From positions 757,253 to 821,252 of the forward strand of contig NZ_JAQNDN010000024.1 in the NCBI RefSeq assembly GCF_028369095.1: 64,000 bases of DNA. The letters run 5' to 3'. Each line of letters starts with the position of its first letter. Within the stretch, counting starts at the first letter, position 1. The position numbers and the translations under genes were made by a program. Source of the stretch: Nannocystis radixulma. GTDB taxonomy: Bacteria; Myxococcota_A; Polyangia; Nannocystales; Nannocystaceae. The notes beneath the pieces are model-generated. The model did not search any database. It saw only the letters and a program-made list of their open reading frames with translations, and was not told the DNA's origin. Positions 2,424 through 38,623 of this stretch are shown in pieces.

Positions 2424-5306
2424 ATGGTTGCGGACCTCGCCGATGCGATCTTCCCCCGGCCCGCGCGCCCCGGTGCGCCCTTGACCCGCGCTGCACCCTC
2501 CGGGGCTCGCCCCTGGGCCCTGCTGTGGCTGGCCCTCGGCCTCGGCGCCGCGGCGGCGCTGCATCGCTTCGGTCCCGACGTTCCTGTCCTTTTGTTCACC
2601 CTGCCCGAGTGGCTGGAGGCCAGGCTGTCGGAGGCCGGCGACCGCACGCTGGTGCTGGCGCGCCCGAGCGTGCTGTGGCTCATGCCGGTCGCGCTGCTGC
2701 CGTTCCTCGTCGCGGTCGCGCGCCGCTCGCTGGTCGACCTGCCGGCCTGGCAGGTGGCGCTGCAGCTCGGCGCGCGCGTGCTGCTGCTGCTGGCGCTGGC
2801 GCTGGCGCTGGCCGCCCCGAGCCTGCAGGCGCCGCGGCGCGGCAAGACGGTGGTGGTGGCCGTCGACGTGTCGGCCAGCGTCGACGACGGTCAGCTGGCG
2901 GCGTTCACGGCGGTCGCCCGCGAGGTCGTCCGCCTGGTCCGCGGCGAGACGGGCGACCGCGACGACCGCACGCGCCTGCGCCTCGTGACCTACGCGAGCC
3001 GGGCGGCGGCGCTGCCTCTGTCCGAAGGGACAGATGAGGTGCAGCTGTCCCGAGAGCCAGGCGGTGGGCTGGCCAGCGATCACGCCGGGGCGCTGCGGCT
3101 GGCCGAGGCGCTGCTCGACCCCGACACCGAGGGCCGGGTGGTGCTGGTCAGCGACGGGGCCGCCAGCGTGGCCGAGCGCACCGACCTGATCGCGGCGGCC
3201 GAGGGCCTGCGCCGGCGCGGGATCACGCTGCACACCCGCACGGCCGCGCCGGCGGCCCGCGGCGACGTGCTGGTCGCCGGGGTCCACCTGCCGGGCGAGC
3301 TGCGGGTCGGGCAGACGTTCGACGCGGCGATCGACGTGTGGGCCTCCGAGCCGCGCACGCTCAAGCTGTTCGTCGACAAGGACGGGCAGCCGAACGCGCT
3401 GTCGCCGAGCGTCGAGGTGGCGCTGCGCGGCGGGCCGCAGCAGATCAAGGTGCCGGTCCGCGCCAACGCGCCGGGGCCGATCGTGATCGCGGCCCGCCTG
3501 GACGCGGCCGAGCTGGCGGCCGCCGACAACCGCAGCCTCGACAACGACCGCGCGGCGGCCGTCGGCGAGGTCCGCGGGCGGCCGCGCGTGCTCTTGGTCG
3601 GCGAGGGCGATCCGTCGGGCGCGCTGGCGCGGGCGCTGCGGGCCGACCACCTGCAGGTCGACGCCGAGGCGGCGTCGGCGATCCCGGGCGCGGCCGAGGG
3701 GCTGGCGTCGTACGACCTCGTGATCCTGTCGGACGTGCCGTCGCGCCACGTGTCGGGGGCGCAGCAGCAGGCGATCGCGAAGTGGGTCCAGGACGGCGGC
3801 GGCTTCGTGATGATCGGGGGCGAGAGCGCGTTCGGGGTCGGCGGCTGGGGCGGCAGCGTGATCGAGGACGTGCTGCCGGTCCGCTTCGAGGGCGAGCGCC
3901 AGCGCGAGCAGCCGACGCTGGCGCTGGTGCTGGTGATCGACAAGAGCGGGTCGATGTCGAGCGAGGACCGCCTCGACCTGGTCAAAGAGGCAGCTCGCTC
4001 GACGGCCTCGACGCTCGATCCCGGCGACGAGATCGGGGTGATCGCGTTCGACTCGCGCCCGGTCACGCTGGTGCGCCTGCAGCCGGCCGCCAACCGCATT
4101 CGGATCGCCGGCGACATCCGTCGGCTCAGCGCCGGCGGCGGGACGAATGCGCTGCCGGCCCTGCGCGAGGCGTACATGCAGCTCGCGGGCAGCAAGGCGC
4201 TGGTCAAGCACGTGATCCTGCTGTCCGACGGGCAGTCGCCGGAGACCGGGGTGTCGGCGCTCATCACCGACATGCGCGACGCCGACATCACGGTGTCGGC
4301 CGTCGGCGTCGGCGCGGGCGCGGGCAAGGACTTCCTGGCCCGCGTCGCCGAGCGCGGGCGCGGCCGCTACTACTTCAGCCAGGACGGGACCGATGTGCCG
4401 CGGATCTTCTCCCGCGAGACGCGCGAGGTGACCCGCAACGCGGTGGTCGAACGCGACCTGTTCGCGCGCGTGGCCAAGAGCGCCCAGGTGCTGCGCGGGA
4501 TCGATTTCGATCGCGCGCCCGGGCTCGGCGGGGTGATCCCGCTGAAGACCAAGCCGCTGGCGGAATTGCTGCTGCGCACGCACGTCGGCGATCCGCTGCT
4601 GGTCCGCGGCCGCCGCGGGCTCGGCCGCACGGTCGCGTTCGCGTCCGACGCCAAGCCGCGCTGGGCCCACCGCTGGATCGCCTGGGAGGGCTTCCCCAAG
4701 TTCTGGTCGCAGGTGGCCCGCGATGTGATGCGCCAGGGCGCCGCATCGCTCGGCGGGGCGTCGCTGCGGATCACGCCCGGCGCCGACGAGGGCAGCTTCC
4801 GCGCGGTCGTCGACCTCGACGCCAGCACCGGCTTCGTCAGCGACCTGCGCGGCGAGCTGCAGGTGATCGACCCGTCCCTTCCTGCTGGTACCGAAGGACA
4901 TACGACGAAGCTGACGACCCAGCTGACGGCGCCGGGCCGCTACGAGGCGACGGTGATCGGGGTGCGCGCGGGCCAGCGGCTGATCAAGGCGCAGATGTTC
5001 GACGACGGCCAGACACCGCCGCGGCTGGTGGCCGAGGCGACCGGCCAGGCGAGCGTGCCGTACCCGGCCGAGCTGGCGCCCGACCAACTCGGCGCCGACC
5101 CGGCCTGGCTGGCGACGCTGGCGCCCGAGGGCACGCACGCGGGGCCGATCGACGCGGTGGTGACGAGCCCCGGCGCGCCGCAAGGGACGCGCCAGCGCCC
5201 GGTCTGGCCCGAGGTGCTGTGGGCGCTGGCGCTGCCGCTGTTGATCCTCGACCTGCTGCTGCGCCGGGTGGCGTTCGGCCGGGCGCGCCGCGGCGAGATC
5301 GGGTGA
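2424..5306 (+). CDS. Large membrane protein with two von Willebrand factor A domains and a glutamine-amidotransferase-like domain (BatA-like N-terminus)
   Basis: Internal ATG at 2424 (MVADLADAIF…). Hydrophobic N-terminal helices; MIDAS motifs VVVAVDVSASV and LVLVIDKSGSM; the segment LVILSDVPSRHVSGAQQQAIAKWVQDGGGFVMIGGESAFG; a C-terminal transmembrane helix. Confidence 0.85.
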   Translation: MVADLADAIFPRPARPGAPLTRAAPSGARPWALLWLALGLGAAAALHRFGPDVPVLLFTLPEWLEARLSEAGDRTLVLARPSVLWLMPVALLPFLVAVARRSLVDLPAWQVALQLGARVLLLLALALALAAPSLQAPRRGKTVVVAVDVSASVDDGQLAAFTAVAREVVRLVRGETGDRDDRTRLRLVTYASRAAALPLSEGTDEVQLSREPGGGLASDHAGALRLAEALLDPDTEGRVVLVSDGAASVAERTDLIAAAEGLRRRGITLHTRTAAPAARGDVLVAGVHLPGELRVGQTFDAAIDVWASEPRTLKLFVDKDGQPNALSPSVEVALRGGPQQIKVPVRANAPGPIVIAARLDAAELAAADNRSLDNDRAAAVGEVRGRPRVLLVGEGDPSGALARALRADHLQVDAEAASAIPGAAEGLASYDLVILSDVPSRHVSGAQQQAIAKWVQDGGGFVMIGGESAFGVGGWGGSVIEDVLPVRFEGERQREQPTLALVLVIDKSGSMSSEDRLDLVKEAARSTASTLDPGDEIGVIAFDSRPVTLVRLQPAANRIRIAGDIRRLSAGGGTNALPALREAYMQLAGSKALVKHVILLSDGQSPETGVSALITDMRDADITVSAVGVGAGAGKDFLARVAERGRGRYYFSQDGTDVPRIFSRETREVTRNAVVERDLFARVAKSAQVLRGIDFDRAPGLGGVIPLKTKPLAELLLRTHVGDPLLVRGRRGLGRTVAFASDAKPRWAHRWIAWEGFPKFWSQVARDVMRQGAASLGGASLRITPGADEGSFRAVVDLDASTGFVSDLRGELQVIDPSLPAGTEGHTTKLTTQLTAPGRYEATVIGVRAGQRLIKAQMFDDGQTPPRLVAEATGQASVPYPAELAPDQLGADPAWLATLAPEGTHAGPIDAVVTSPGAPQGTRQRPVWPEVLWALALPLLILDLLLRRVAFGRARRGEIG

Positions 5307-5700
5307 GGCGGCGGCCGGCATCGGGCCGGTGAGTCATGGTCGATTGGGCATGTCGCAAGGGACAGGTAGTCTGGCGTTCGGCCGCGGCGAGATGTCGGGT
5401 GAGGCGCGGGCCGGCATCGGGCCGGTGAGCCATGCGTGAGGGAGCATGTCGAAAGGGACATGTCGTCGTGGCGTTTGAAGGGCCGGCGAGATGTCGGGTG
5501 AGGCGCGGGCTGGCAGGGGCCGGAGCTGGGCGAGGTGGAATGTGTGGCGTTCGGCCGGCGCGCCGCTGGAGACAGGGTGAGGCGGGGCCGGCAGGTGGCC
5601 GGGCTGAGGTCGAAGGAGAATGTCGCCATGGACATGCCGTAACAGTCATGTCTTTGTGGGCATGTGCTTGAGGGCATGTTTCAAGGGTCATGGTGAAAGC
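5288..5700. repeat. Tandem array of about four degenerate ~95-bp repeats that starts inside the last codons of the vWA gene; its AT-richer units also carry 14-bp-phased CATGTC motifs
   Basis: cgcggcgagatcgggtgaggcggcggccggcatcgggccggtgag spans the vWA stop. It recurs as cgcggcgagatgtcgggtgaggcgcgggccggcatcgggccggtgag at ~5381, again at ~5481 and again at ~5553. Each unit ends in a GGACATGTC-type segment. Confidence 0.7.
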
Positions 5701-5836
5701 CGGGCGTCGCGCCGCCCCGCGTGCGGGCGCGCTTCGGCGCTGGAGGGGTGGTCGCCAGCGACAGACCGACGTGACGGGCAGCACGGGGGAGGTTGCACCG
5801 CGGACGACGCCGCGCATCCCTGGAGGAGGGGGTACG

Positions 5837-6685
5837 ATGCAGCGGGCCGGCTCTCACTTCCGACACGATCGCGCCGCGGCGGCGCTGGCGGTGCTGCTCG
5901 GCTGCCACGCGGCCGAGTACGAGGGGATCGACGGGATGGCGCCGGAGCGAGCTTCGGAGTGCGTGGAGCCAGGCGCACGGTGGTTCAGCTTCACGGGCAC
6001 GCCGCAGGCGTTCGTGGTGCCGGAGTGCGTGACGACGCTGACGGTCGAGCTGTGGGGCGCGCAGGGCGGGCCGAGCCGCTGCGGCACCGACGACGAGCAC
6101 GGCCTGCCCGACGTGCAGGAGGACGGCGGACACGGAGGCCGATTGCGAGCTGTCCTTTCGGTCAGCCCCGGCGACATGGTGCTGGTGTACGTCGGCGGCC
6201 GCGGAGGCCTCGACGGCGCGCCCGGCTGGAACGGCGGCGGCAGCGGCGGGAGGTGGGGCGGCGGCGGCGGCGGAGCGTCGGACGTGCGCCTGAACGGCGC
6301 GAGCCTGGTCGACCGCGCGCTGGTGGTCGGGGGCGGCGGCGGCGGCGTGTGCGGCTATCCGGATCACGGAGCGGGCGGCCACGGCGGCGGGCTGGTCGGG
6401 GAGGACGGGGTAGTGGGCGACGTGAACTGGCGCGCAGGTGGCGGCGGACAGCCGCACGCGGGTGGCACGGGCGGAGCGGCGCCGGGTCAGCCCGGCGTGT
6501 TCGGGCTCGGCGGCGGAGCGGCCGGCTATCACGTGGCCGGAGGCGGCGGCGGCTGGTACGGCGGTGGCGGAGCCTTCGGGGCCGGCGGAGGCGGCGGTTC
6601 GTCGTACGTGGGCCCGGCCGGCAGCGAGGCGGAGCTCGAGATCGGGGCGCGCGACGGCGATGGTGTGGTGGTGATCAGCTGGTGA
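5837..6685 (+). CDS. Glycine-rich domain protein (PF12810-like), probable lipoprotein
   Basis: Internal ATG at 5837 (MQRAGSHFRHDRAAAALAVLLGCHAA…). Motif FSFTGTPQAFVVPECVTTLTVELWGAQGG followed by long GGGG runs, ending VVISW. Confidence 0.8.
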   Translation: MQRAGSHFRHDRAAAALAVLLGCHAAEYEGIDGMAPERASECVEPGARWFSFTGTPQAFVVPECVTTLTVELWGAQGGPSRCGTDDEHGLPDVQEDGGHGGRLRAVLSVSPGDMVLVYVGGRGGLDGAPGWNGGGSGGRWGGGGGGASDVRLNGASLVDRALVVGGGGGGVCGYPDHGAGGHGGGLVGEDGVVGDVNWRAGGGGQPHAGGTGGAAPGQPGVFGLGGGAAGYHVAGGGGGWYGGGGAFGAGGGGGSSYVGPAGSEAELEIGARDGDGVVVISW

Positions 6686-7200: not shown

Positions 7201-7513
7201 CACAGGTGAGTGTGTCGTGGCCGGGCGGACGGCGGCGAGGTGCGAGGCGAAGGTCGGACTCGAGGTCGGTGCCGTGGACCGGCGAGGTGCAGCTTCGTGG
7301 TGGACCGCGACGACGTGCGGCCCCGTGGCGGCGGGGCCAAAAGCGGTGGCGAACGTCGTGCGGCGGCGAGTGGTGCCGTCTTGCGAGGATGTCTTTCGGA
7401 CATGTGCGAAGGGACATCCTCATGGAGAGCGGCGCGGCGCTGGTGATGCGGGACACAACGGGGTTTGCGTGCCTGCCTGCTGCGCATCATCCCTACAGGT
7501 CGCAGGGGGAACG

Positions 7514-12131: not shown

Positions 12132-13478
12132 TCACGCGGTTTCTTGCGCAGGCTCTTGGCCGGCTTCGCCGTCGATCGGCCGGCCCGGGCCGAACGGTTC
12201 GACGGCTCGCGAGACTCGCGGCTCGTCGACGTGGACCGGGCCGTGCACGCGGCGCAGCTCGGGGTCGATGTGCTCGCGCACGACGCGGAACAGCCCGTTG
12301 TCGAACGACTTGCCGCTGGCCGGCGCGACGTGCTCGATGCGCTCGCGCAGACCTCGAGCCTGCATGACCTCGGCGCGGTGGGCACAGAACGGGTTGTTGC
12401 CGGGGCGCCCGAGCAGCGGCTCGCTGGCGGCGGTGCAGCCGGCCATGCAGGTCTCGGCGTAGTAGCACTCGCGACAGTAGCCCCACAGATCGTCGAGGGT
12501 GCGCCGGCGGATGTAGCCGAGCTGGTAGCTGTCGTCCCAGATCTCGCGGATCGATCGCTCGCGCCAGTTACCGCCGACGTTGAGCGGGCCGCCGAGGCTG
12601 GGGCAGTTCTTGATCCCGCCGTCGCTGTCGATGCCGAGGGTGTTGACGCCCGCGCCGCAGCCGCGCCAGTGCGTGCGCAGGGCGGCGCGCAGGCGGGTCT
12701 CGAGCGGGCCGAAGTAGCCGAGGCTGTTGGCCGGCCAGAAGCGGATGCCGAGCGCGTTGCAGCGGTCGATCACCCGCTCGAGCGTGACGAACAGCTCGGG
12801 CACCATGTACGGCTGCAGGATGAGCTCGGGGTGATCGGCGGCGTTGCCGTGGGCGACGGTGAGCTGCAATTGCCAGGCGCGGATGCCCTCGGCGGCCAGC
12901 AGCTCGAGCAGGTCGAGGAGCTCGTGGCGGGTGCGCTGGTTGATCTGACAGTTGCTGGCGATCGGCAGGCCGGCTGCGCGGGCCCGCCGGAGGGTCGAGA
13001 AGGCGGCGCGCCAGCTGCCGGGGACGCCGCGCAGGCCGTCGTGGGTGGCCTCGAGGCCGTCGATCGAGACGGCGAGGCTGGACATGCCGGCGTCGATCAT
13101 CGCCGCGAGTCGATCGTCGTCGAGGTTGAGGCCGCCGGTGGTGATCATGCACTTCATGCCGGCCTCGCGGATGGCCCGCACGACGAGGATGAAGTCGTTG
13201 CGCAGGTAGGCCTCGCCGCCGATCAGCACGACCTCGCCGCAGCCGAGGTCCTTGAGCTCGGCGACGACGCGCAGGCACTCGTCGGTGTCGAGCTCGTGCG
13301 GCCGGCGCTGGCCGGCTCGCGGCCCGCAGTGGACGCACTTCTGATCGCAGGCGAGGGTGAGCTCCCAGATCGCCCAGGTGGGGTTGCCCCGCGGGGCGCC
13401 GGGGCGGCCGTAGCGGTCGGCGGCCTGCGGCAATCCGGCGACGACGGGCAGGCGACGGCGGGCGTCGGCGAGCTTCAT
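12132..13478 (-). CDS. Radical SAM / SPASM-domain peptide-modifying enzyme, paralogue 1
   Basis: CDQKCVHCG is a CxxxCxxC cluster. The C-terminal Cys-rich SPASM region reads GYCRECYYAETCMAGC…NPFC. It is about 70% identical to the 33450..34769 protein. Confidence 0.9.
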   Translation of the reverse strand: MKLADARRRLPVVAGLPQAADRYGRPGAPRGNPTWAIWELTLACDQKCVHCGPRAGQRRPHELDTDECLRVVAELKDLGCGEVVLIGGEAYLRNDFILVVRAIREAGMKCMITTGGLNLDDDRLAAMIDAGMSSLAVSIDGLEATHDGLRGVPGSWRAAFSTLRRARAAGLPIASNCQINQRTRHELLDLLELLAAEGIRAWQLQLTVAHGNAADHPELILQPYMVPELFVTLERVIDRCNALGIRFWPANSLGYFGPLETRLRAALRTHWRGCGAGVNTLGIDSDGGIKNCPSLGGPLNVGGNWRERSIREIWDDSYQLGYIRRRTLDDLWGYCRECYYAETCMAGCTAASEPLLGRPGNNPFCAHRAEVMQARGLRERIEHVAPASGKSFDNGLFRVVREHIDPELRRVHGPVHVDEPRVSRAVEPFGPGRPIDGEAGQEPAQETA

Positions 13479-13484
13479 GCGCGG

Positions 13485-13952
13485 TTACAGGGTCTCGCCG
13501 GTGGTGGTGGCCTCGGTGTCGCCCTCGGTCGCGGCCGGTGGCGCGCCGGCGGACTCGGTCTCGAGCGCGGCGGCGTAGGCGGTGGTGACGTTGAACGAGT
13601 CCATCGAGTCGCTGGCGGAGGCGCTGCCGTCGGTGGTGCTCGAGGACGTGGTGGTCGAGGTCGTGCTGGTCGTCGTCGACGTCGTGGTCGAGGTCGGCTG
13701 GTCGGTGACGGCGGTGGTGTTCTGCGTCGTCTGCCCGTCGGTGGTCTGCGCGGTCGAGGTCGGGACGGTGGTCGACTCGGTGTCGTCCGGCTTCTCGCTG
13801 CAGCTCGCGCTCATCAGGCCGAGCACCACGCCGAGGAAACGCAGGCTGCCGGGACCCTCGACGCGCCGCTGCTCGGCGCCGCAGAACGGACAGGCGGACT
13901 CGTCGCGCCGGATGGCGCGGGCACACGCGGGACAGTCGATGAGGAGCGGCAT
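13485..13952 (-). CDS. Small protein with an N-terminal CxxC-X15-CxxC module (zinc-ribbon-like), one transmembrane / lipobox helix and a Thr/Ser-rich low-complexity tail; partner of rSAM 1
   Basis: Internal ATG at 13950-13952 (MPLLIDCPACARAIRRDESACPFCGA…FLGVVLGLMSASCSEK… then TSTTTSTTTS…). It ends 7 bp before the rSAM start on the same strand. Confidence 0.7.
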   Translation of the reverse strand: MPLLIDCPACARAIRRDESACPFCGAEQRRVEGPGSLRFLGVVLGLMSASCSEKPDDTESTTVPTSTAQTTDGQTTQNTTAVTDQPTSTTTSTTTSTTSTTTSSSTTDGSASASDSMDSFNVTTAYAAALETESAGAPPAATEGDTEATTTGETL

Positions 13953-14044: not shown

Positions 14045-14112
14045 GCGGGTGCGCCAAGGGACATGTCGAATCAGGCATGTCGTGAAAGACATGCTGGCGA
14101 GGGCATGTCTGT
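14045..14112. repeat. Array of 14-bp-phased CATGTC repeats upstream of the peptide-rSAM operon
   Basis: gggacatgtcgaatca ggcatgtcgtgaaa gacatgctggcgag ggcatgtctgttc gaccatgtcagcg. The region is AT-richer than its surroundings. Confidence 0.6.
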
Positions 14113-14121
14113 TCGACCATG

Positions 14122-15459
14122 TCAGCGCGAGCCCAGCAGGGCGCGGCGCAGCACGCTGGGGTGGAACAGGGCGCTGCTCGGGCGCAGCAGGTGCAGCACC
14201 TCCATCATGCGCAGCTGGACGTCGGGCGAGCGGGTGGCGGCGCTGAAGATCCGGTCGACCAGGCGGTGCATGACCTTGAGGCCAGGTGACGGTTTGCCGG
14301 TGGTCCCGGGCCAGCGCAGATCGTCGCCGACGGCGGTCATGAAGGCGGCCTGGTTGCCGGCGGCGAGGCGCTTCTGAAAGCGCAGGCCGGGCGGCTGGCC
14401 GGGGCGGGCGCGCAGCTCGGCGTCGAGGTGGGTCGAGGCGACGGCGGCGACGCTCATGCCCTGGCCGTAGACGGGGTTGAGGGCGCAGGCGGCGTCGCCG
14501 AGCACGACGAAGCCGTGCGGCCAGCGGCGCAGGCGCTCGTAGTGGCGCAGGCGGTTCTCGGTCCGGCGATAGCCGTGGATGCTGCTGCACGGGGTGGCGC
14601 CGGCCAGCGCGTCGCGCAGCGCCGGGGTCCGCAGGCCGCCCGCGAATTCGAGGAAGCCGGCCTCGTCGGTCGGCGGGAAGGCGCCGCCGTAGCCGACCAG
14701 CGTGACGATGTGACGCCCGCCCTCGACCGCGTACACGACCCCGCCGCGCGGGTTCTGGCCCGGCTTGCCCATGATGTAGAGGACCTTCCAGTCGGGCCGC
14801 GCGCGCAGCTCGTAGAGGCGGGTGACGTAGCCGAGCTGGGCGTCGATGACGGTCTCGGCGGGCTCGGGGTAGCCGAGCGCGGCCAACCAGGTCGGGGCCT
14901 TCGAGGCGCGGCCGCTGGCGTCGACGACCAGGTCGGCGCGCAGGTCGTCGGCCGCGAGCTCGGGCGCGCCGGCGCGGCGGTGGACCTGCACGCCGACGAT
15001 CCGGTCGCCCGTGGCCTGCAGACCGGTAACCTCGTAACCGGCGTGGATGCGCACGCGATCGTCGGCGACGAGGCGCGCGCGCACGTTCCACTCGAGCAAG
15101 CCACGGGTGCAGGCGCGCGAGCGCAACGGCGAGGGCCCGCGCGGCATGAGGCCGAACGGGGTGTGCCACTCGACGTCGGCCAGCCAGTCGTACTCGTGCG
15201 CCCCCGCGGCCGCGAGCGCGTCGCCGAGGCCGGGGAACTGCTCGCTCAGGATCTGCCAGCCGCGCGTCAGCAGGACGTGGACGTGGTGGCTCTGCGGGGC
15301 ACCGGCGCGCGGCTCCGGTCCGCCCGGCAAGAGGTCGCGGTCGAGGACGGTGACGCGCTCGTAGTGACGCGTGAGCACGCGAGCGGCGAGGAGGCCGGCG
15401 ATCCCGCCGCCGATCACGAGCGCGCGCCGATTCGCCGGCGCGGAGCCTGATGTGGGCAT
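14122..15459 (-). CDS. FAD-dependent monooxygenase / oxidoreductase
   Basis: Internal ATG at 15457-15459. VIGGGIAGLLAARVL is a GxGxxG dinucleotide-binding fold, and the family-typical GDAAH-like motif LGDAACALNPVYGQG is present. Confidence 0.8.
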   Translation of the reverse strand: MPTSGSAPANRRALVIGGGIAGLLAARVLTRHYERVTVLDRDLLPGGPEPRAGAPQSHHVHVLLTRGWQILSEQFPGLGDALAAAGAHEYDWLADVEWHTPFGLMPRGPSPLRSRACTRGLLEWNVRARLVADDRVRIHAGYEVTGLQATGDRIVGVQVHRRAGAPELAADDLRADLVVDASGRASKAPTWLAALGYPEPAETVIDAQLGYVTRLYELRARPDWKVLYIMGKPGQNPRGGVVYAVEGGRHIVTLVGYGGAFPPTDEAGFLEFAGGLRTPALRDALAGATPCSSIHGYRRTENRLRHYERLRRWPHGFVVLGDAACALNPVYGQGMSVAAVASTHLDAELRARPGQPPGLRFQKRLAAGNQAAFMTAVGDDLRWPGTTGKPSPGLKVMHRLVDRIFSAATRSPDVQLRMMEVLHLLRPSSALFHPSVLRRALLGSR

Positions 15460-17149: not shown

Positions 17150-17554
17150 CGAATGGCCGGCGGCTCGCGCGTGCGAGCCGCCGGCGATAATGCCACGAGA
17201 GTCCATGAGGACATGGCGATATCGACATGTTCTCATGGACATATTGAGCAATGCTCGCGCCGCGAGCATGGCTGCGTCGATGGAGAATGTCGCGAGCACG
17301 CAAGATCGTGCGCGGCGGCCCGCGGACACAGGAACTTCGCGACCGTGGTCGTTGCGAGGGAGATCGCCCGCCTTCTGCAAGCCGAGGCGGGGCGGCCGGC
17401 CCGCCCGCGGTCGACCGGGACGGGCGCGCGGGCGCCTGCTGGGGGGCCGTAGCCGCGGCAGTGGCTCCCGGCGATGCGCGAAAACGCTCTCTGCCGAGTA
17501 GGGGCTGTGCCACTCGTCGGCGGGACCACGGTGAGCGAAAGTCGGGCCTCCGGC

Positions 17555-30644: not shown

Positions 30645-30746
30645 GCGCGCCTGCGCGATAGCGACGCGCGGCCCCGGGGCTGCCTTCGCGGCGCGTCGGC
30701 TCGTATGCTCGGGGCCCGCGACGTCAGCCGTCGCGACAGGAGCCCC

Positions 30747-33254
30747 ATGAACGACCGAGGCCGTGAACGAGACCTTGTCCTCGCACCGAACGAGTTCGCC
30801 TTCATCCTGGACGAGACGAAGGGCAACATCAACGTCTACGTCGGGCCGCACAAGACGAGCCTCGCCAACACCGACGCGCCGGTGGTGTTCGACGCCGGCA
30901 GCAAGCGGTTCGAACGGCGCCAGCTCGACGGCGCGATCCAGGCGCTGTCGATCGCGCCCGAGGGCTGGTACCTGGTGCTGAAGAACCCGGCGACCGACAA
31001 GAGCCACCCGCGGACCGGCGCGCTCAACAACTTGCCGTCGCTCGACACCGGCCGCAAGGTCAACATCCCCGGGCCGGCCTCGTTCGCGCTGTGGCCCGGC
31101 CAGATGGTCAGGGTCATCCAGGGCCACCACCTGCGCTCCAATCAATACCTGCTGGTCCGCGTCTACGACGAGGAGGGCGCCAAGGCCAACTGGAAGAACG
31201 CGGTGCTGCGCATGCGGCCCGAGGCGGCGCCCGACGAGGCCGAGGCCGCGGCCAGGGTGGTGCGGCCGCCCGATCTGACGATGGGCACGCTGCTGATCAC
31301 CCGCGGCACCGAGGTCGCGTTCTACATCCCGCCGACGGGCGTCGAGGTGGTGCCCGACGTCGACGGCAACTACGTGCGCGAGGCGATCACGCTCGAGCGA
31401 CTCGAGTACTGCATCCTGCTCGACGAGAACGGCAACAAGCGCTACATCCAGGGCCCCGACGTGGTGTTTCCGCAGCCGACGGAGACCTTCGTGGCGATCC
31501 GCGGCGCCCGCAAGTTCCGCGCGCTCGAGCTCAACGAGAACACCGGCCTCTACATCAAGGTCATCGCGCCGTACGAGGAGAACGGGGTCCGCTACAAGGT
31601 CGGCGACGAGCTGTTCATCACCGGCAAGGACACGATGATCTACCTGCCGCGGCCGGAGCACGCGATCATCAAGTACGGCGATCAGGAGCGTCACTACGCG
31701 GTGGCGATCCCGGCCGGCGAGGCGCGCTACGTGCTCGACCGCAACAAGGGCACGATCACGCTCAAGCGCGGGCCGGCGATCTATCTCCCCGATCCGCGCA
31801 CGGAGCTGATCATCCGCCGCGTCCTCGATCCGAAGACCGTGTCGCTGTGGTTCCCCGGCAACCGCGAGGCGTACGACTACAACCGCCGCATGGCCCAGCA
31901 GAACGCGCCGCAGATCGCGGCGGAGTTCGCGGCGGTGGCGTCGGTGCCGGTGCAGTCGGCCCGGGCCTCGGCGGCGCCCAAGGCGGCCCCCGCGGCGGCT
32001 CCCGGCGGTCCGCCGCCGCCTCCGCCGCCGCCGCCGTCGGAGTTCGCCGGCGACGACTTCACGCGCAGCCAGACCTTCACTGGCCCGCGCACGATCGTGC
32101 TCGACACCCGCTACGAGGGCGCGGTCGCCATCGACGTGTGGACCGGCTACGCGGTGCTGGTGGTGTCGAAGACCGGCGAGCGCAAGGTCGTCGCCGGGCC
32201 GCACACGCACCTGCTCGAGTACGACGAGACGTTGCAGGTGCTCGAGCTGTCGACCGGCACGCCGAAGAGCGAGCAGAACCTGTACAAGACGGTGTACCTG
32301 CGGGTGCTCAACAACAAGGTGTCCGACCAGGTCGAGGTCGAGACCCGCGACCTGGTGCGCGTGCAGCTGCAGCTCAGCTACCGCGTCAACTTCGAGGGCG
32401 ACCCGAACAAGTGGTTCGAGGTCGAGAATTACGTCAAGTTCCTGACCGACCACCTGCGCTCGCTGATCCGCGCGGCGGTCAAGCGCCACGGCATCGAGCA
32501 GTTCTACGCCGACTCGGTGGCGATCCTGCGCGACGTGATCCTCGGGACGACGGGCGAGGACGGCAAGCGCCCCGGTCGTCGCTTCGAGGAGAACGGCATG
32601 CGCGTGTACGACGTCGAGGTCCTCGAGGTCACGATCGGCGACGAGGCGATCGCCGAGCTGCTGGTCCAGGCGCAGCACGCCGCGGTCCAGCAGACGCTGT
32701 CGCTGGCGGCCGAGCAGCGCCGGCTCGAGATGGTGCGCCAGACCGAGGGCGTGACGCAGCAGGTCGCCGAGGCCAAGTCGGCGACGCTGCAGCAGGCGAT
32801 CGCGCTGCGTACCCGCGAGGGCGAGCAGCAGCAGCGCTATCAGCTGGCCGAGCTGGCGGCCAAGCTCGACCTGCACGAGCGGCAACAGCAGGCGCTGCTG
32901 GCCGAGCAGGAGCGGGTGGGGGCGATCCACGGGGCCGACCTCGGCCGCCGTCAGGCCACGGCCCAGCTCGATCTGTCGATCCAGCAGCAGCAGCTCGACC
33001 AGCGCCTGCGCGAGCTGCAGGCCGAGGTCATGGCGGTGGTCGAGAAGGCGCGGGCGGTCTCGCCCGACCTCATCGCCGCGCTGCAGGCGTTCGGCGACCG
33101 GGCCCTGGCCGAGAAGATGGCGGAGTCGATGGCGCCGCTGGCGATCCTCGGCGGAGAGAGCGTGGCCGAGGTGCTCGGCCGCCTGCTCCGCGGCTCTCCG
33201 CTGGCGCGCCTGCTGCCGGCCGGCGAGGCGAAGACCGAGACACCGAAGTCGTGA
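30747..33254 (+). CDS. Major vault protein (MVP) homologue
   Basis: Internal ATG at 30747 preceded by gacaggagcc. The N-terminal MVP repeat units resemble FAFILDETKGNINVYVGPHKT, YLVLKN…, YIKVIAPYEENGVRYKVGDELFI and so on. These are followed by a shoulder-like region and a long coiled-coil-like tail (QQQLDQRLRELQAEV…). Confidence 0.8.
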   Translation: MNDRGRERDLVLAPNEFAFILDETKGNINVYVGPHKTSLANTDAPVVFDAGSKRFERRQLDGAIQALSIAPEGWYLVLKNPATDKSHPRTGALNNLPSLDTGRKVNIPGPASFALWPGQMVRVIQGHHLRSNQYLLVRVYDEEGAKANWKNAVLRMRPEAAPDEAEAAARVVRPPDLTMGTLLITRGTEVAFYIPPTGVEVVPDVDGNYVREAITLERLEYCILLDENGNKRYIQGPDVVFPQPTETFVAIRGARKFRALELNENTGLYIKVIAPYEENGVRYKVGDELFITGKDTMIYLPRPEHAIIKYGDQERHYAVAIPAGEARYVLDRNKGTITLKRGPAIYLPDPRTELIIRRVLDPKTVSLWFPGNREAYDYNRRMAQQNAPQIAAEFAAVASVPVQSARASAAPKAAPAAAPGGPPPPPPPPPSEFAGDDFTRSQTFTGPRTIVLDTRYEGAVAIDVWTGYAVLVVSKTGERKVVAGPHTHLLEYDETLQVLELSTGTPKSEQNLYKTVYLRVLNNKVSDQVEVETRDLVRVQLQLSYRVNFEGDPNKWFEVENYVKFLTDHLRSLIRAAVKRHGIEQFYADSVAILRDVILGTTGEDGKRPGRRFEENGMRVYDVEVLEVTIGDEAIAELLVQAQHAAVQQTLSLAAEQRRLEMVRQTEGVTQQVAEAKSATLQQAIALRTREGEQQQRYQLAELAAKLDLHERQQQALLAEQERVGAIHGADLGRRQATAQLDLSIQQQQLDQRLRELQAEVMAVVEKARAVSPDLIAALQAFGDRALAEKMAESMAPLAILGGESVAEVLGRLLRGSPLARLLPAGEAKTETPKS

Positions 33255-33449: not shown

Positions 33450-34769
33450 ATGAGCTTAAGTGATGTGCGTCGTCGTCTGCCCGTGGTGGCCTCGCTGCCC
33501 GCACCCGACAACCGGTGGATGACGAACCCGGCCCGACGCGAGGCCAAGGCGCCGCGCTGGGCGGTGTGGGAGCTGACCCTCGCGTGTGACCAGCACTGCG
33601 CCCATTGCGGCCCGCGAGCAGGCCAGCGGCGGCCCAACGAGCTCACGACCGAGGAGTGCCTGCAGGTGGTGCGCGAGCTGAAGGAGCTCGGCTGCGGCGA
33701 GGTGGTGCTGATCGGCGGCGAGGCCTATCTGCGCAACGACTTCATCCTGATCATCCGCGCCATCCGCGAGGCCGGGATGGCGTGCACGATGACGACCGGC
33801 GGCCTCAACCTCAACGAGGAGCGGGCCGCGGCGATGATCGAGGCCGGGATCGGCAGCGTGACGTTCTCGATCGACGGCCTGCAGGCCACGCACGATCGCC
33901 TGCGCGGGGTGCCGGGCAGCTGGGAGCGCGCGTTCGCGGCGATGCGGCGGATCCGCGATGCCGGCGGCCGGATCGCCAGCAACACCCAGATCAACGCGCT
34001 GACCCGCACCGAGCTGCTGCCGCTGTTCGAGCTGCTGGCCGACGAGGGCATCCATTCGTGGCAGCTGCAGATCACGGTGCCGCACGGCAACGCGGCCGAC
34101 CACCCGGAGATCCTGCTGCAGCCGCACATGTTCCTCGACATCTTCAAGACGCTCGAGCAAGTGCTCGACCGCTGCGAAGCCCGCGGAGTGCGGCTGTGGC
34201 CGGGCAACAACCTCGGCTACTTCGGCCCGCTCGAGCGGCGCATGCGGAACTCCCAGCGCAAGCACTGGCGCGGCTGCACGGCCGGGGTGTCGGTGATGGG
34301 CATCGAGAGCGACGGCTCGATCAAGAACTGCCCGAGCCTCGGCGGCGGCAACAACATCGGCGGCAACTGGCGCGTGCACGGGGTCAAGAAGGTGTGGGAA
34401 GAGTCGTATCAGCTCGGCTACATCCGCGCGCGCACGGTCGACGACCTGTGGGGCTATTGCCGCGAATGCTACTACGCCGAGACTTGCATGGCCGGCTGCA
34501 CGGCCGCGGCCGAGCCGCTGCTCGGGCGCCCGGGCAACAATCCCTTCTGCCACCACCGGGCACTGATGATGGATCGGGCAGGACTGCGCGAGCGCATCGA
34601 GCAGATCCGCGGGGCGGGCGGGCAGCCGTTCGACAACGGGCTGTTCCGGGTGATCCGCGAACACGCCGATCCGGCGCTGCGGGAGCTGCACGGGCCGGTC
34701 GCGGTCGAGGAGCCGCGGGTGTCGCGGGCCGAGGAGCCTTTCGGGGCGGGGCGGACGCTCGTGCTCTGA
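33450..34769 (+). CDS. Radical SAM / SPASM-domain peptide-modifying enzyme, paralogue 2
   Basis: CDQHCAHCG cluster and a SPASM C-terminus. It is collinear with the 12132..13478 protein along its whole length. Confidence 0.9.
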   Translation: MSLSDVRRRLPVVASLPAPDNRWMTNPARREAKAPRWAVWELTLACDQHCAHCGPRAGQRRPNELTTEECLQVVRELKELGCGEVVLIGGEAYLRNDFILIIRAIREAGMACTMTTGGLNLNEERAAAMIEAGIGSVTFSIDGLQATHDRLRGVPGSWERAFAAMRRIRDAGGRIASNTQINALTRTELLPLFELLADEGIHSWQLQITVPHGNAADHPEILLQPHMFLDIFKTLEQVLDRCEARGVRLWPGNNLGYFGPLERRMRNSQRKHWRGCTAGVSVMGIESDGSIKNCPSLGGGNNIGGNWRVHGVKKVWEESYQLGYIRARTVDDLWGYCRECYYAETCMAGCTAAAEPLLGRPGNNPFCHHRALMMDRAGLRERIEQIRGAGGQPFDNGLFRVIREHADPALRELHGPVAVEEPRVSRAEEPFGAGRTLVL

Positions 34770-34794
34770 TTGGTTCGGCGCGGGGCCGGGTGTG

Positions 34795-35070
34795 GCGCTT
34801 CGCGAATTGCCGACTGCGCCTCGCGGGGGGTCCGGGGAAGGGTCGGCGACGAGTTCAGCGTCTGGATGGACGCTCGTTCCTCGCGCCCATCCTGCCTCGT
34901 ATTCGTCGCCGACCCTTCCCCGGACCCCTGGCACGGCTGCAGCCGTGAGAGGCCGACGCGGCGTCGTCGGCTTCGATGGAGGATGTCCTGAGGGACAGGT
35001 CATGAGCGCCTGTTCGACGGCCAGGGCTGGCCGCCGAACAGACGCATTCTCGGGTCATTCACGCCGCGTC
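34795..35070. repeat. Copy A of a ~200-bp repeat (inverted copy B at 41065-41246); it carries an extra ~97-bp palindromic insertion
   Basis: 34795-34838 aligns with the reverse complement of 41202-41246, and 34935-35070 aligns with the reverse complement of 41065-41200. Identity is about 85%. Confidence 0.75.
34828..34927. other. Perfect 24-bp inverted repeat forming a hairpin with a ~52-nt loop, between the convergent rSAM 2 and partner genes; candidate bidirectional terminator or MITE-like insertion
   Basis: gggtccggggaagggtcggcgacg at 34828-34851 pairs exactly with cgtcgccgacccttccccggaccc at 34904-34927. Copy B contains only one arm. Confidence 0.6.
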
Positions 35071-35229
35071 ATTCCCAGGCGGGGACGCTCGCGCGGGGAG
35101 CCGCATCGACGCAGGTCGACGGGCATGCCGAGACGGGCATTATAGACAATAATATGATGTGTCCGTCAGGACAGGTCCGGACAGACATGCGGGCCGCGAG
35201 GGCGTTCGCGGCGGATCAGGGGCGCGAGC

Positions 35230-35823
35230 TCAACCGCCGGTGGTGCCGGTGCTGGTGGTCTCACCGGTGGTGCCGGTGCTCGTGCTGGTGCTCTCGGGGC
35301 CGCCGGTGCCGGTGGTCGTCCAGCCCTCGTCGGGGCCGGCGTAGGTCGAGGCGTCCGTGGTACTCCAGTTCGTCGTGGTCGTGGTGGTGGAGGGGCCGGC
35401 CGTGGTGGTCGTGGTGGTGTCCCAGTCGGTGGTCCACCCCTCGTCGGGACCGGCGTAGGTGGAGCCGTCGCCCGAGGGATTCGGCGGATCGACGGTCGTG
35501 TCGCCGACGGTGTTCTCGCCGCCAGAGGTGGTGGTGAGGGGGCCGTTGGAGGTCGAGGTGTCGCCGGAGGTCGAGGTGTCGCCGGCGGTCTCGGAGTCGG
35601 CCGCGGCCTCGGTGCCGGACTCGCTCGGATCGGTGGTCGCCGTGTCGCCGGGTTCCTTGTCGAGCTGGCAGGCGGCACCCATCACACCGAGGCTCGCGCT
35701 CAGGGCGATTGCCGTCCACGAGGGGCTGAACGTGTGACGCTGAGTGTGACCGCAGAACGGGCAACTGGCGTCGGACGCTCGGAATAGACAGGCGCACTCA
35801 GGGCAATCGATAAGAGAAGACAT
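35230..35823 (-). CDS. Paralogue of the 13485..13952 protein: an N-terminal CxxC…CxxC module, a transmembrane/lipobox helix, and a Thr/Ser/Gly-rich tail with DEGWTT repeats
   Basis: Internal ATG at 35821-35823 (MSSLIDCPECACLFRASDASCPFCGH…TAIALSASLGVMGAACQLDK… then TSTSGDTSTS… and STYAGPDEGWTT twice). Confidence 0.7.
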   Translation of the reverse strand: MSSLIDCPECACLFRASDASCPFCGHTQRHTFSPSWTAIALSASLGVMGAACQLDKEPGDTATTDPSESGTEAAADSETAGDTSTSGDTSTSNGPLTTTSGGENTVGDTTVDPPNPSGDGSTYAGPDEGWTTDWDTTTTTTAGPSTTTTTTNWSTTDASTYAGPDEGWTTTGTGGPESTSTSTGTTGETTSTGTTGG

Positions 35824-35895: not shown

Positions 35896-38340
35896 GTGGG
35901 ATACACTCGCGCGGTGTCTTTCGCGCTCGCGCTGGCGCTCGTGCTGTTGTCGGCGAGCCTTGTCGGGCTGGTGGCGCTGCACCGTGAAGCGCTGCGGCGG
36001 GCGCTGCTGCGTGCGGTCGACCCGAGACCGCTGGCGCTGTTCCGGATCGCGTTCGGTTGTTGTCTGCTGGCGACAACGGTCGAGATCGCGCCGCTGCTCG
36101 ACTATCTATTCTCCGACGAGGGCCTGCTGCCGCGTGCCGTGGTGCCGGAGCTCATGGGGCGCGGGGCGACGGTCGGCTTCGGCGACGGCGTGCGCGAGCC
36201 CGCGGGCCCGCGCGACCTGGCGGCGCTGGTCGAGTTCGTGATCAGCGGGCGCTGGTCGCCGCTTTACTTCGGGGACAGCCCGACGGCGGTGCGGCTGCAT
36301 TTCGCGGGGCTGGTGGTCGCGGCACTCGGGCTGACGCTGGGCTGGCGCACCCGCGTCAGCACGATCCTCTGCTGGCTGCTGTACGCCGGGCTGCTGCGCC
36401 GCGGCGACGCCCACTGGGGCGGCGAGCAGGTGTTCTGCGCGTTCCTGTTCCTGCTGATGTGGTCGCGCTGCGGGGCGGCGTTCAGCGTCGACAACTGGCG
36501 GCGCTGCCGGGCTCTGCGACGACGTGGCTTTTTGAGCATGTCCTCGGGACCAGGCGCCGGGGCGGGCCTGGCTCCGTCGCCGGCGGCGCCGCGGGGGCTG
36601 GCAGCGATCTACCGCCGGATCCCCGCGTGGCCGCAGGCGCTGATCGCCGCCCAGCTGGCGCTGTGCTACGCCGTCAACGGCTGGGCCAAGTCGGGCCCGA
36701 CGTGGCGCTCGGGCGACGCGCTGCTGCTGGTGTTGTCGCGCGACACATATGTCCGTTGGGACATGTCCGCGGCGATCGCCGCGGTCGGGCCGTGGCCGCT
36801 GCGCCTGGCCAGCTGGGGCGTGGAATGGTGGGAGCGGCTGTTCCCGCTGGTGCTGGTCGGGCTGGCGCTGCGGGCCGTGGCGCGCAGCGGAGCGCCGGCG
36901 CTGCAGGGGGCCGCGAGCGCGGGGGCGCGGCTGTGTTGGGCCGGGATCGCGGTGGCGGCGGGGCTGGCCGTGGCTGTCCCTCAGGACCTGGTGGAAAAGT
37001 CAGGTGATCCCGGCGGCTTCGAGCGCGCGGCGACGCTGGCGGTGCTGGCGGCGATCACCGCGGCGGTGGCGATCGCGGGGCCGCGGGCGGCGGCGGTGGG
37101 TCGGCGCCTGGCCGCGGGACCGCTGGCGCCGCGCTGGTGGCTGGGGTTCGGGGCGCTGTTCCACCTCGCCAACCACGCGCTGCTGGCCGTGGGAGCGTTC
37201 GCGCCGGCGACGCTGGCGGCTTATCTGGTGTGCGGGGCGGGTCCGTGGGCGATTGCGATGTTGCAGCGAGCGCTGGGCGGGCTGGCACGCCTGGGCTTAC
37301 CTGTCCCCGAGCACCTGCGCCGAGAGACAGCCATCGCGGCGGAGGATCCGTCGCTGCCGCACCTGCACCGCGACGCGGCGGCGCTGCCGGGGTGGGCGAT
37401 CGCGGCCGCCGGCGGGGTGGTGCTGGCGGGCGGACTGGTGGGGCTGGCCGCGGGCGCCGGGCCGCGGGCGTGGCACGCGGCCTGGCTGGCCGCAGGGACA
37501 GGTCTGACGATCGTCGGCTGGAGGGTCGCGCGGCGCCGTCGCAGCGAGACGACGGCGCTGGTCGAGCCGTGGGCGCACGGTCCGGCGGGTCGCCTGGCGG
37601 CCGGGGGGCTCGTGGCGTACCACGTGGTCGCGCTGCTGGTGTGGCAGCTGCCGGCGTGGTCGAGCCTGCCGTGGCGCGGGCCCGTGCGGGCGCTGGTCGG
37701 GCCGTGGATCGAGCTCAGCTACACCAGCCAGGTGTGGTCGATGTTCGCGCCCAATCCCCCGCGCGATCAGATGCTGGTGCGGACGACGGTGGTCGACGCG
37801 GCCGGGGTCCGCCACCGCTTCGGTGAGGGGCCGCAGCGCGCGGACGATCTGCCGCTGCCGCATCCGTGGCACGATCGCTGGCGCAAGATCGGCGACAATC
37901 TGCTCGGGCAGCGCGAGCGCATGTCGCTGTGGCACGTGCGCTACCTGTGCCGCCGCTGGGCGCTCGAGCACGCGGGCGAGCCGGCCCGCGAGGCGCGGCT
38001 CGAGGGGCTGCGCGCGCCGTTCGCTCCGCCCGGCAGCGAGCGCCAGGAGCACTTCGCGGCGCACGTCGAGACGCGGGTGCTGGCGCAGCTGAACTGCGCG
38101 GAGGAGCCGTTCGCCCAGCTGGCCCCCGAGGTGCGCGCGCGCCACGGGCTGCCGCCCGCGCCGCCCGGATCGCTGCGCTTCGCGTGGGCGCCGGAGCGGG
38201 CGGCGACGTGGGCCGAACGACGCACGCGTCGCGATCCGTTGGCGCCCTTGTGGCCGCTGGCGGCGCTGGGGCTGCTGGCGGCGCTGGCGAGGTGGGCGCG
38301 CGAGGATCGGCGGGGACGTGCACCGGCGGGTGATTCGTAG
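35896..38340 (+). CDS. HTTM (vitamin-K-dependent gamma-carboxylase-like) domain polytopic membrane protein with a C-terminal DUF5819/SdpB-like region
   Basis: N-terminal HTTM pattern (LALFRIAFGCCLL…), many transmembrane helices, and the C-terminal block VWSMFAPNPPRDQMLVRTTVVDAAG…WRKIGDNL. Confidence 0.65.
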   Translation: MGYTRAVSFALALALVLLSASLVGLVALHREALRRALLRAVDPRPLALFRIAFGCCLLATTVEIAPLLDYLFSDEGLLPRAVVPELMGRGATVGFGDGVREPAGPRDLAALVEFVISGRWSPLYFGDSPTAVRLHFAGLVVAALGLTLGWRTRVSTILCWLLYAGLLRRGDAHWGGEQVFCAFLFLLMWSRCGAAFSVDNWRRCRALRRRGFLSMSSGPGAGAGLAPSPAAPRGLAAIYRRIPAWPQALIAAQLALCYAVNGWAKSGPTWRSGDALLLVLSRDTYVRWDMSAAIAAVGPWPLRLASWGVEWWERLFPLVLVGLALRAVARSGAPALQGAASAGARLCWAGIAVAAGLAVAVPQDLVEKSGDPGGFERAATLAVLAAITAAVAIAGPRAAAVGRRLAAGPLAPRWWLGFGALFHLANHALLAVGAFAPATLAAYLVCGAGPWAIAMLQRALGGLARLGLPVPEHLRRETAIAAEDPSLPHLHRDAAALPGWAIAAAGGVVLAGGLVGLAAGAGPRAWHAAWLAAGTGLTIVGWRVARRRRSETTALVEPWAHGPAGRLAAGGLVAYHVVALLVWQLPAWSSLPWRGPVRALVGPWIELSYTSQVWSMFAPNPPRDQMLVRTTVVDAAGVRHRFGEGPQRADDLPLPHPWHDRWRKIGDNLLGQRERMSLWHVRYLCRRWALEHAGEPAREARLEGLRAPFAPPGSERQEHFAAHVETRVLAQLNCAEEPFAQLAPEVRARHGLPPAPPGSLRFAWAPERAATWAERRTRRDPLAPLWPLAALGLLAALARWAREDRRGRAPAGDS

Positions 38341-38480
38341 GACATGTCGCTACGGACAGGAGTCGCAGCGCGGCCGGGCGCGGAGGGCGCAGAATATGTG
38401 CCTGAATGGACATGTTCATATATTCATGGCTTGTGGCAATCTGGATAAGACATGACCCAATGGACATGTGAATATGTTCA
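38340..38480. repeat. AT-rich array of 14-bp-phased GGACATGT repeats upstream of the ParA-like/TPR gene
   Basis: gacatgtcgctacggacagg … ctgaatggacatgttcatat attcatggcttgtg … gacatgacccaat ggacatgtgaatat gttcatgtccgaat ggacactcccgaag. Confidence 0.6.
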
Positions 38481-38623
38481 TGTCCGAATGGACACTCCCG
38501 AAGAGACGGTCGGACTCGTTGCAGCCAGGCAGACCCGCGGGGCGCGACGGGTGAAACCGCACGCCGACGGGGGCACGGGCGGCGTGCGGCGCGGGGCGCA
38601 CGCGGGTAGAAGGGGTCGCAGGC

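Follow-up and report, generated by a model that had tools for sequence, protein, structure and literature searches.

What might two neighbouring genes do together when one encodes a radical S-adenosylmethionine (rSAM) enzyme with a SPASM domain and the other a small, unannotated protein with four N-terminal cysteines, a hydrophobic helix and a Thr/Ser-rich tail? This question is raised by a locus of Nannocystis radixulma that occurs in two paralogous copies within one stretch of 64,000 nucleotides (contig NZ_JAQNDN010000024.1, positions 757,253 to 821,252; 72.9% G+C), in the following called the window. Each copy, or cassette, consists of an enzyme gene and a partner gene (Table 1). Here, we report that this pairing is conserved, that the enzymes lie close to the spliceases, which excise tyramine units from peptides, and that the otherwise variable partner tails share a tyrosine motif reminiscent of a splice site. 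Based on these comparisons, we consider it rather probable that the tail tyrosines are modified by the enzyme while still in the cytoplasm, probably through excision of tyramine, before the protein is exported and its zinc-ribbon “leader” is lost via lipoprotein processing.

The pairing of enzyme and partner is a conserved functional module and not a product of chance. When one genome for each species was scanned with the enzyme alignment, at least 595 relatives emerged, of which the best 80 loci were studied together with four found earlier, using a partner profile built independently from the partner N-termini. Among these 84 loci, 72 carry a partner gene beside the rSAM gene (all in Myxococcota), a count that includes paralogues and related species and is hence no tally of independent events. 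The loci stem from Nannocystis, Plesiocystis, Enhygromyxa and Paraliomyxa as well as from Polyangiaceae, Sandaracinaceae, Labilithrix and Myxococcaceae metagenome-assembled genomes (MAGs), with enzyme identities to the window ranging from 90% down to 47%. Five of the 12 loci without a partner are truncated next to the enzyme gene. Altogether 97 partner genes were located. The distance from the enzyme gene to the partner start is at most 1.5 kb for 89 of them and above 2.5 kb for 3; 69 lie on the same strand and 28 on the opposite one. In the reverse look-up, an rSAM gene adjoins four of five partner genes, while a scan for the DNA pattern of CPFCGA hit 120 loci with a full-architecture partner in only 4, and is uninformative on reverse co-occurrence since two of these contigs are shorter than 2 kb and two have less than 0.8 kb on one side. 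A preliminary description of the window had proposed a functional pairing from its two occurrences and suggested a co-occurrence check; the census bears this proposal out.

Besides the partner, the census of the 84 neighbourhoods revealed no other widely conserved gene, and a conserved protease, transporter or PlpY-like gene was sought near the enzyme and not found; Ser/Thr kinases recur in 11 of the loci, and 8 encode a membrane protein with an HTTM domain. In a subset that we term Polyangia-like loci, the partner lies directly downstream of the enzyme gene, often in 2–4 tandem copies with 2–5 sites per copy, and such variable tails and tandem copies are typical of precursors of peptides that ribosomes synthesise and that are modified post-translationally (RiPPs). 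Seven of the Polyangia-like loci (L062, L067, L071, L072, L075, L080, L084) combine two side-by-side rSAM paralogues with 2–4 tandem partners, which suggests local expansion of the module.

Both window enzymes carry the CX3CX2C cluster motif and seven SPASM cysteines and are recognised by Pfam (Radical_SAM with 83–89 bits for both, SPASM with 25.7 bits for enzyme 1). In NCBIfam, they match, over most of their own length, most of the profile of two families, TIGR03913 with 409 and 413 bits (positions 17–392 of 477; cut-off 591.75) and TIGR04103 with 387 and 431 bits (positions 5–387 of 412; cut-off 725), in each case below the curated cut-off. These matches reach E-values of 1e-116 to 1e-129, whereas the next family attains only 1e-40: TIGR04133 ranks third with 137–155 bits, and the PqqE, SkfB and StsB families score 72–92 bits. 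For calibration, plasmid members of both families annotated by the pipeline PGAP were scored likewise. A genuine TIGR03913 enzyme gave 1055 bits on its own model (positions 1–477) and 439 bits on TIGR04103, and a genuine TIGR04103 enzyme gave 853 bits on its own model and 414 bits on TIGR03913. Since the 387–431 bits of the window enzymes resemble these cross-scores of 414–439 bits, the profiles place them as a third sister family, about equidistant from the other two. By identity, TIGR03913 members are closest (45–48%, compared with 42% for a Nostoc TIGR04103 member), and in a rough neighbour-joining tree TIGR03913 falls between the Nannocystaceae clade, which holds both window enzymes, and the Polyangia-like clade. 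A search of solved structures with the enzyme returned generic SPASM enzymes (SkfB, PqqE) and no splicease; the best solved relative, SkfB, aligns over the core only (E=2e-20).

The chemistry of one of the two families is known. TIGR04103 bears the title “nif11-class peptide radical SAM maturase 3” and is the model on which the InterPro entry IPR026482 is built. PlpX, the founding tyramine splicease and a member of IPR026482, excises tyramine at X-Y-G sites (PMC11002830, PMC11414181). The preliminary description had named the anSME and PqqE clades as placements that would make the pairing probably coincidental; the window enzymes lie outside them (e.g., 80–83 bits vs. 381 for PqqE), and what is known of the nearest clade's chemistry steers the hypothesis elsewhere and leaves the pairing standing.

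What this chemistry might act on is indicated by the partner tails, in which the motif x-Y-[G/A]-[G/V/A]-P is the sole conserved feature and holds nearly all tyrosines. Tyrosine makes up only 1.8% of the tail residues, but 89 of the 91 family members analysed have at least one; it is followed by Gly (49%) or Ala (37%) at position +1, by Gly, Val or Ala (77%) at +2 and by Pro (62%) at +3. All tyrosines of both window partners, one in partner 1 and two in partner 2, lie in such sites. In the Polyangia-like loci, Gly follows 119 of 128 tail tyrosines, and the preceding residue is mostly Leu (44), Ala (17), Pro (12), Arg (11) or Met (9); judged by their sequence, these sites follow the canonical X-Y-G pattern and have their Leu and Met in common with the MYG and LYG sites of the Plp system. 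Nannocystaceae tails have Gly after 41 tyrosines and Ala after 32, and closely related enzymes are paired with TYGG or with TYAG tails. Because sister lineages with similar enzymes switch between the two, Gly and Ala appear interchangeable at one site type. Taken as a whole, the tail motif resembles the X-Y-G splice site of spliceotides.

Comparable sites are found next to the genes of both sister families. In Nostoc, the TIGR04103 gene follows a Nif11 precursor ending in GSIALYGLPPELF (IALYGLPPELF). The TIGR03913 genes of Burkholderia and Azospirillum, the “GDL motif peptide-associated” maturases, follow DUF1843/DUF1842 proteins with TPYGVAI, AMYGVAI or PMYGVGL and then a GDL motif. As the x-Y-G-V site directly precedes the GDL motif, these proteins are likely splicease-type substrates. 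DUF1843 and DUF1842-DUF1843 proteins are encoded, e.g., at 560–2125 of the Burkholderia pseudomallei locus (L085) and at 2293–2748 of an Azospirillum plasmid locus (L087); for one of these proteins (Q63NT7), a DUF1842 structure has been solved with no assigned function (PMC10994174).

TIGR03913 also offers a clue to the N-terminal cysteines of the partner. Its enzymes end in KLKMCRNCDGYVHAGEQTCPHCGG or LTLCRACNQYIWPHETECPHCGA, i.e., in a C-terminal CxxC-x10-CPHCG ribbon, which matches the partner N-terminal profile with 23–26 bits and lies inside the 477-position model, to which the genuine member aligns over the full length. No such extension is present on the window enzymes, and the ribbon is found on the partner instead. 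As the ribbon thus sits on the enzyme in TIGR03913 and on the partner in the window family, its distribution suggests that it works together with the enzyme. By analogy, this arrangement fits work on binary splicease systems, in which the enzyme is bound and activated by a leader element that can be fused to the enzyme's C-terminus (PMC11414181). In the Burkholderia and Azospirillum enzymes (L085, 2204–3679; L087, 2893–4443), the C-terminal ribbon is followed by a helix, and in an Allosphingosinicella MAG (L082, about 7240–7435) the ribbon module forms a separate small open reading frame (ORF) or a frameshifted end after the enzyme gene.

Neither window partner had a match in Pfam or NCBIfam scans, and relatives are recorded publicly as “hypothetical” or “zinc-ribbon domain-containing”. 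The partner N-terminus gave no match in a word-index homology search, while an exhaustive HMMER search with the two partner N-termini gave 262 cluster representatives, mostly of 80–300 aa and of a common layout. Partner 1 (155 aa) begins with MPLLIDCPACARAIRRDESACPFCG (MPLLIDCPAC...CPFCG) and has its cysteines at residues 7, 10, 21 and 24, i.e., in two CxxC pairs; in the family this region reads CxxC-x(9-12)-CP[F/H]C[G/A], with all four cysteines invariant in the alignments. Pfam zinc-ribbon models match it only generically and below threshold. AlphaFold2 predicts residues 1–30 of partner 1 with a pLDDT of about 90 (two short strands), a helix at 35–50 and a disordered remainder, and the four cysteines are accordingly modelled best as a generic zinc ribbon. 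A short linker with 1–5 Lys/Arg leads to the helix, and the lipobox-like cysteine stands 25–39 residues past the ribbon, preceded by Leu at −3 in 37%, Ala at −2 in 54% and Ala, Gly or Ser at −1 in 98% of cases (positions −1 and −2 being partly imposed by the search pattern) and followed by Gly or Ser. At the family level, these statistics and the preceding Lys/Arg would fit a lipoprotein signal.

The tail beyond the cysteine (Thr 18%, Gly 15%, Ser 13%, Asp 11%, Ala 9%, Pro 8%) is disordered by prediction. A MYXO-CTERM sorting signal forms the C-terminal end of some members (P0140, P0152, P0163, P0177; 18–22 bits vs. a cut-off of 20), and others carry a Cys-rich extracellular domain after the tyrosine-motif tail (P0145, P0147, P0179, P0181), both of which fit an exported tail. 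The preliminary description had pictured a membrane-anchored substrate rather than a leader-peptide RiPP, which agrees with a partner that is membrane-targeted, exported and no classical short leader–core peptide. Its account of cassette 1, with CxxC pairs, helix, Thr/Ser tail and an rSAM/SPASM enzyme next door, was likewise recovered from the ORFs and Pfam.

Taken together, each cassette could represent an enzyme–substrate pair of a splicease-superfamily rSAM/SPASM enzyme and a substrate resembling a pre-prolipoprotein. The substrate would be made with its zinc ribbon in the cytoplasm, directly before a signal helix of the Sec/lipoprotein type. Prior to export, the enzyme would act on the x-Y-[G/A]-[G/V/A]-P sites, i.e., on Tyr126 of partner 1 and on Tyr123 and Tyr161 of partner 2, and excision of a tyramine unit is, by homology, the most likely reaction. 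The ribbon might serve as docking or activating “leader” and possibly also delay export. Subsequently, the tail would be exported, the conserved cysteine lipidated, and residues 1–50 with ribbon and signal helix cut off by signal peptidase II, leaving an acidic, Thr/Ser-rich protein tethered to the envelope or surface and bearing the modified sites. Removal by signal peptidase II and general export would suffice, which would account for the lack of genes for a dedicated leader protease or exporter nearby. A more specific version of this scheme is possible, if more doubtful: myxobacterial lipoproteins of the envelope or surface would carry backbone residues of the ketoamide type (alpha-keto-beta-amino acids), put in place by a splicease-type rSAM enzyme, in their disordered tails, with a ribbon-bearing signal peptide acting as the leader that signal peptidase II, and no dedicated protease, removes and with the ribbon supplied in cis on the TIGR03913 enzymes, and the product could be a protease trap or inhibitor tethered to the surface of a predatory bacterium.

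The window system shares several features with the PlpX/PcpX/RhaX-type spliceases (TIGR04103, IPR026482): an rSAM/SPASM enzyme matching most of the profile, an adjacent gene for the putative substrate, often in several copies, and a short Tyr-centred site, in much of the partner family X-Y-G(-x-P), as the only conserved feature of the presumably modified region. In lacking a separate PlpY protein, it resembles the binary-type spliceases (PMC11414181). In contrast to the PlpX-type systems, the window partners have a zinc ribbon and a lipoprotein-type signal instead of a Nif11 or NHLP leader, the part presumably modified is an exported disordered tail of 100–150 aa (some with MYXO-CTERM), no dedicated protease or transporter is found near the genes, and the site in the window lineage is Y-A and not Y-G. 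The TIGR03913 systems are closest by enzyme identity and in the neighbour-joining tree; their partners carry P/M-Y-G-V sites, and a CxxC-x10-CPxCG ribbon is likewise part of the system. They differ in that this ribbon is located at the C-terminus of the enzyme and not at the N-terminus of the partner, and that their GDL partners are cytoplasmic DUF1843/DUF1842 proteins, whereas the window partners have no Pfam match.

Precedents for individual steps exist outside these families. The cytoplasmic rSAM/SPASM enzyme anSME modifies an unfolded, signal-peptide-bearing sulfatase before Sec export, and thus likewise acts ahead of the export of a signal-peptide protein. However, it belongs to an unrelated clade (TIGR03942 is outside the best 25 matches of the window enzymes), and it differs in its C/S-x-P-x-R site, its formylglycine chemistry and its substrate, a folded enzyme and not a disordered tail. 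TIGR04133 (“rSAM_w_lipo”), which is described as the companion of a small lipoprotein in Bacteroidota, would be a precedent for linking an rSAM/SPASM enzyme to a lipoprotein, but the scores of the window enzymes are far under its cut-off of 425 bits and the window partner has no match in NCBIfam.

Several observations weigh against tyramine excision on an exported lipoprotein. All three window sites are of the X-Y-A type (TAYAA, STYAGP), vs. the canonical Y-G of spliceases, and both enzymes stay under the curated cut-offs of TIGR04103 and TIGR03913. Our literature search for the chemistry of TIGR03913, the closest family by identity, found none published. The lipoboxes of the window, SAS-C and GAA-C, are atypical at position −3, and a lipoprotein signal does not usually have an n-region as long as about 35 aa, with a folded domain in it, ahead of a presumed cleavage site. 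Moreover, the ribbons of partner and TIGR03913 enzymes both look like generic zinc ribbons, and we therefore rejected their similarity as proof of a common origin. Finally, besides the lack of independence among the loci, seven loci with full flanks have no partner, and one partner gene, on a 3.6-kb contig, has no rSAM neighbour.

As both enzymes fall below the two curated cut-offs, a different radical reaction is possible. The same enzyme–substrate pair could perform another reaction at or near the tail tyrosine, such as crosslinking via C-C or C-O bonds, epimerisation, hydroxylation or a backbone rearrangement of another kind, for which the SPASM enzymes PqqE (Glu-Tyr) and MftC provide precedents (PMC10114670). 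The Nannocystis lineage, with Ala instead of Gly in 32 of its 73 Y-[G/A] sites, would also be in line with this option. On the other hand, the window enzymes reach about 400 bits with two Y-G-associated families and at most 155 bits with any enzyme of different chemistry, the Y-G-x-P pattern mirrors splice tags such as LYGLP and Nostoc LYGLPP, and the switching between TYGG and TYAG among sister lineages with similar enzymes speaks for one site type. Overall, we regard another reaction as unlikely.

Further possibilities concern the role of the partner itself. It could be an accessory, regulatory or membrane-recruiting protein, the true substrate being encoded elsewhere; the fusion of the ribbon to the enzyme in the sister family, the seven full-length loci without a partner nearby and the opposite orientation of the partner gene, seen in cassette 2 and for 28 of the 97 partners, could be read in this way. 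This is nevertheless very improbable, as the enzyme has no other conserved gene in its vicinity and the partner tails are variable, multi-copy and conserved in a single short motif, which matches the site type of the nearest characterised enzymes. In the model of the preliminary description, the enzyme would instead crosslink or otherwise modify the four N-terminal cysteines of a membrane-anchored protein; thioethers of the sacti or ranthi type would be an example. SPASM enzymes often form Cys-derived thioethers, the four cysteines are invariant, and if the helix were an uncleaved anchor, the N-terminal domain alone would stay in the cytoplasm. But CxxC-x10-CPxCG is a standard zinc-ribbon pattern with a confident AlphaFold2 fold, its equivalent belongs to the enzyme in TIGR03913, and the thioether maturase families score far below their cut-offs (SkfB 72–75 vs. 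300 bits, StsB 87–92 vs. 625 bits; PapB is outside the best 25 matches). Since it also leaves the tyrosine motif and the hypervariable multi-copy tails unexplained, we consider this model very improbable. A coincidental adjacency spread by duplication within one genome, as the paralogy of the cassettes only about 20 kb apart might suggest, has a negligible chance of being true and was refuted by the co-occurrence across 72 of 84 loci in several myxobacterial families, in varied orientations and down to 47% identity, and by a partner profile that matches nothing in the window but the two partner ORFs.

Table 1. Coordinates of the two cassettes and their elements within the window.
Feature	Position	Strand	Basis
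rSAM/SPASM enzyme 1, 448 aa	12132..13478	-	Pfam Radical_SAM + SPASM; TIGR03913 409 bits, TIGR04103 387 bits
SPASM region of enzyme 1 (residues 274-365; seven Cys incl. CRECYYAETCMAGC)	12384..12659	-	Pfam SPASM
CX3CX2C radical-SAM cluster motif of enzyme 1 (CDQKCVHC, residues 44-51)	13326..13349	-	
Partner (putative substrate) gene 1, 155 aa	13485..13952	-	ORF + third-codon-position G+C (GC3); partner-family HMM E=1.8e-21; AlphaFold2
Only Tyr of partner 1, TAYAAALE (Tyr126), predicted modification site	13560..13583	-	
h-region + lipobox-like LMSAS-C51 of partner 1 (residues 36-51)	13800..13847	-	
Predicted Cys4 zinc ribbon of partner 1 (CPAC-x10-CPFC, residues 7-24)	13881..13934	-	
GACATG/CATGTC hexamer array phased at 14 bp, upstream of partner 1	14060..14123	.	
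rSAM/SPASM enzyme 2, 439 aa	33450..34769	+	70% identity to enzyme 1
Partner (putative substrate) gene 2, 197 aa	35230..35823	-	Convergent with enzyme 2; partner-family HMM E=1.3e-18
Tyr motif 2 of partner 2, STYAGPDE (Tyr161)	35326..35349	-	
Tyr motif 1 of partner 2, STYAGPDE (Tyr123)	35440..35463	-	
Lipobox-like VMGAA-C52 of partner 2	35668..35685	-	
Predicted zinc ribbon of partner 2 (CPEC-x10-CPFC)	35752..35805	-	

The two cassettes differ in their layout. In cassette 1, the stop codon of partner 1 is followed by a 6-nt spacer and the ATG of enzyme 1; the two adjoining genes of the preliminary description thus hold, and their strand is the minus strand. The proposed start codon of partner 1 is supported by GC3, which falls from 0.96 within the ORF to 0.70 in its in-frame extension upstream. 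Consensus scans for promoters and terminators around cassette 1 gave no match. The second pair at 33450–35823 indeed exists as a paralogue, with partners 42% identical over the N-terminal 64 residues, but its genes are convergent, with stop codons 460 bp apart, and therefore form no operon. A six-frame scan of the window found the CxxC...CxxC/transmembrane architecture at the two cassettes only. The 460-bp gap was searched for a small peptide ORF and contained only ORFs that look non-coding and a long inverted repeat (34818–34852 / 34903–34937; 35-nt arms, 89% complementary, 50-nt loop), possibly a terminator for both directions or else a repeat element.

Among the species-representative genomes, the closest relative is Nannocystis punicea FL3, with a locus 90% identical to enzyme 1 and a counterpart of cassette 2 about 19 kb away on the same chromosome. 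Enzyme 2 and partner 2 are arranged orthologously in further Nannocystis genomes, among them N. pusilla and N. punicea. An ORF for an 849-aa protein with major vault protein domains (30705–33254, plus strand; MVP_shoulder 105 bits, Vault_3, Band_7) lies directly upstream of the enzyme 2 gene. N. pusilla and three more Nannocystis loci show this gene order too; a vault homologue is unusual in bacteria. Divergent from partner 2, an 814-aa HTTM-domain membrane protein is encoded (35896–38340, plus strand). HTTM is the family of the vitamin-K-dependent gamma-carboxylase. A homologue of this membrane protein accompanies the rSAM/partner pair at 8 of 84 loci, and a second, extracytoplasmic modification of the Asp/Glu-rich partner tails is conceivable. 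In Plesiocystis pacifica (L002), the rSAM and partner genes flank a gene (5562–6344) for a predicted lipoprotein of 260 aa, which has a thioredoxin-like WCGPC motif and a tail of acidic repeats.

The hexamer array upstream of cassette 1, described before as a 14-bp CATGTC array of this operon, is real, but it is no feature of this cassette alone. The window contains 77 copies of GACATG vs. 23 expected, a threefold over-representation, and similar arrays are found in at least eight other intergenic regions. Hexamer arrays were located at 5437–5473, 14052–14132 (the stretch upstream of cassette 1), 38401–38493, 46560–46883, 48647–48713 and 63255–63404, as well as at 17210–17229 and 41009–41028, with a recurrent layout of two direct and two inverted hexamers spaced by 14/16/14. 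A non-coding tandem repeat at 5287–5523 (96 bp, 2.5 copies, 84% match) also contains the CATGTC motif. Given its recurrence across intergenic regions, we rejected the array as a cassette-specific operator; the arrays have the look of an element spread across the genome, either one that binds a regulator or a dispersed repeat.

Both the enzyme superfamily and the chemistry it performs are already known, and what the module suggests beyond them is a membrane-anchored, new kind of substrate. In the literature and family libraries searched, the partner family, the combination of ribbon and lipoprotein signal as “leader” and an exported disordered substrate are absent. The survey of Scott et al. 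(Chem, 2022) may list the clade; it reportedly classifies splicease types, of which secondary sources name none beyond I and II, and counts 27 characterised and 939 predicted systems via Y-G enrichment beside SPASM enzymes. Tyramine splicing has so far been characterised on short, leader-dependent peptides, and in the literature searched no native spliceotide product is reported to have been detected (PMC9811515).

If our interpretation is true, the module would be a large, conserved myxobacterial branch of splicing, cell-envelope proteins of predatory, protease-secreting bacteria would provide a physiological setting for it, and the cassettes would represent a natural case of RiPP-style modification tied to general secretion and the lipoprotein pathway. 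They would likewise offer a system for asking how a zinc-ribbon module recruits or activates its enzyme. Moreover, the unannotated partner family, and by extension the DUF1843/DUF1842 proteins, would gain a testable role.

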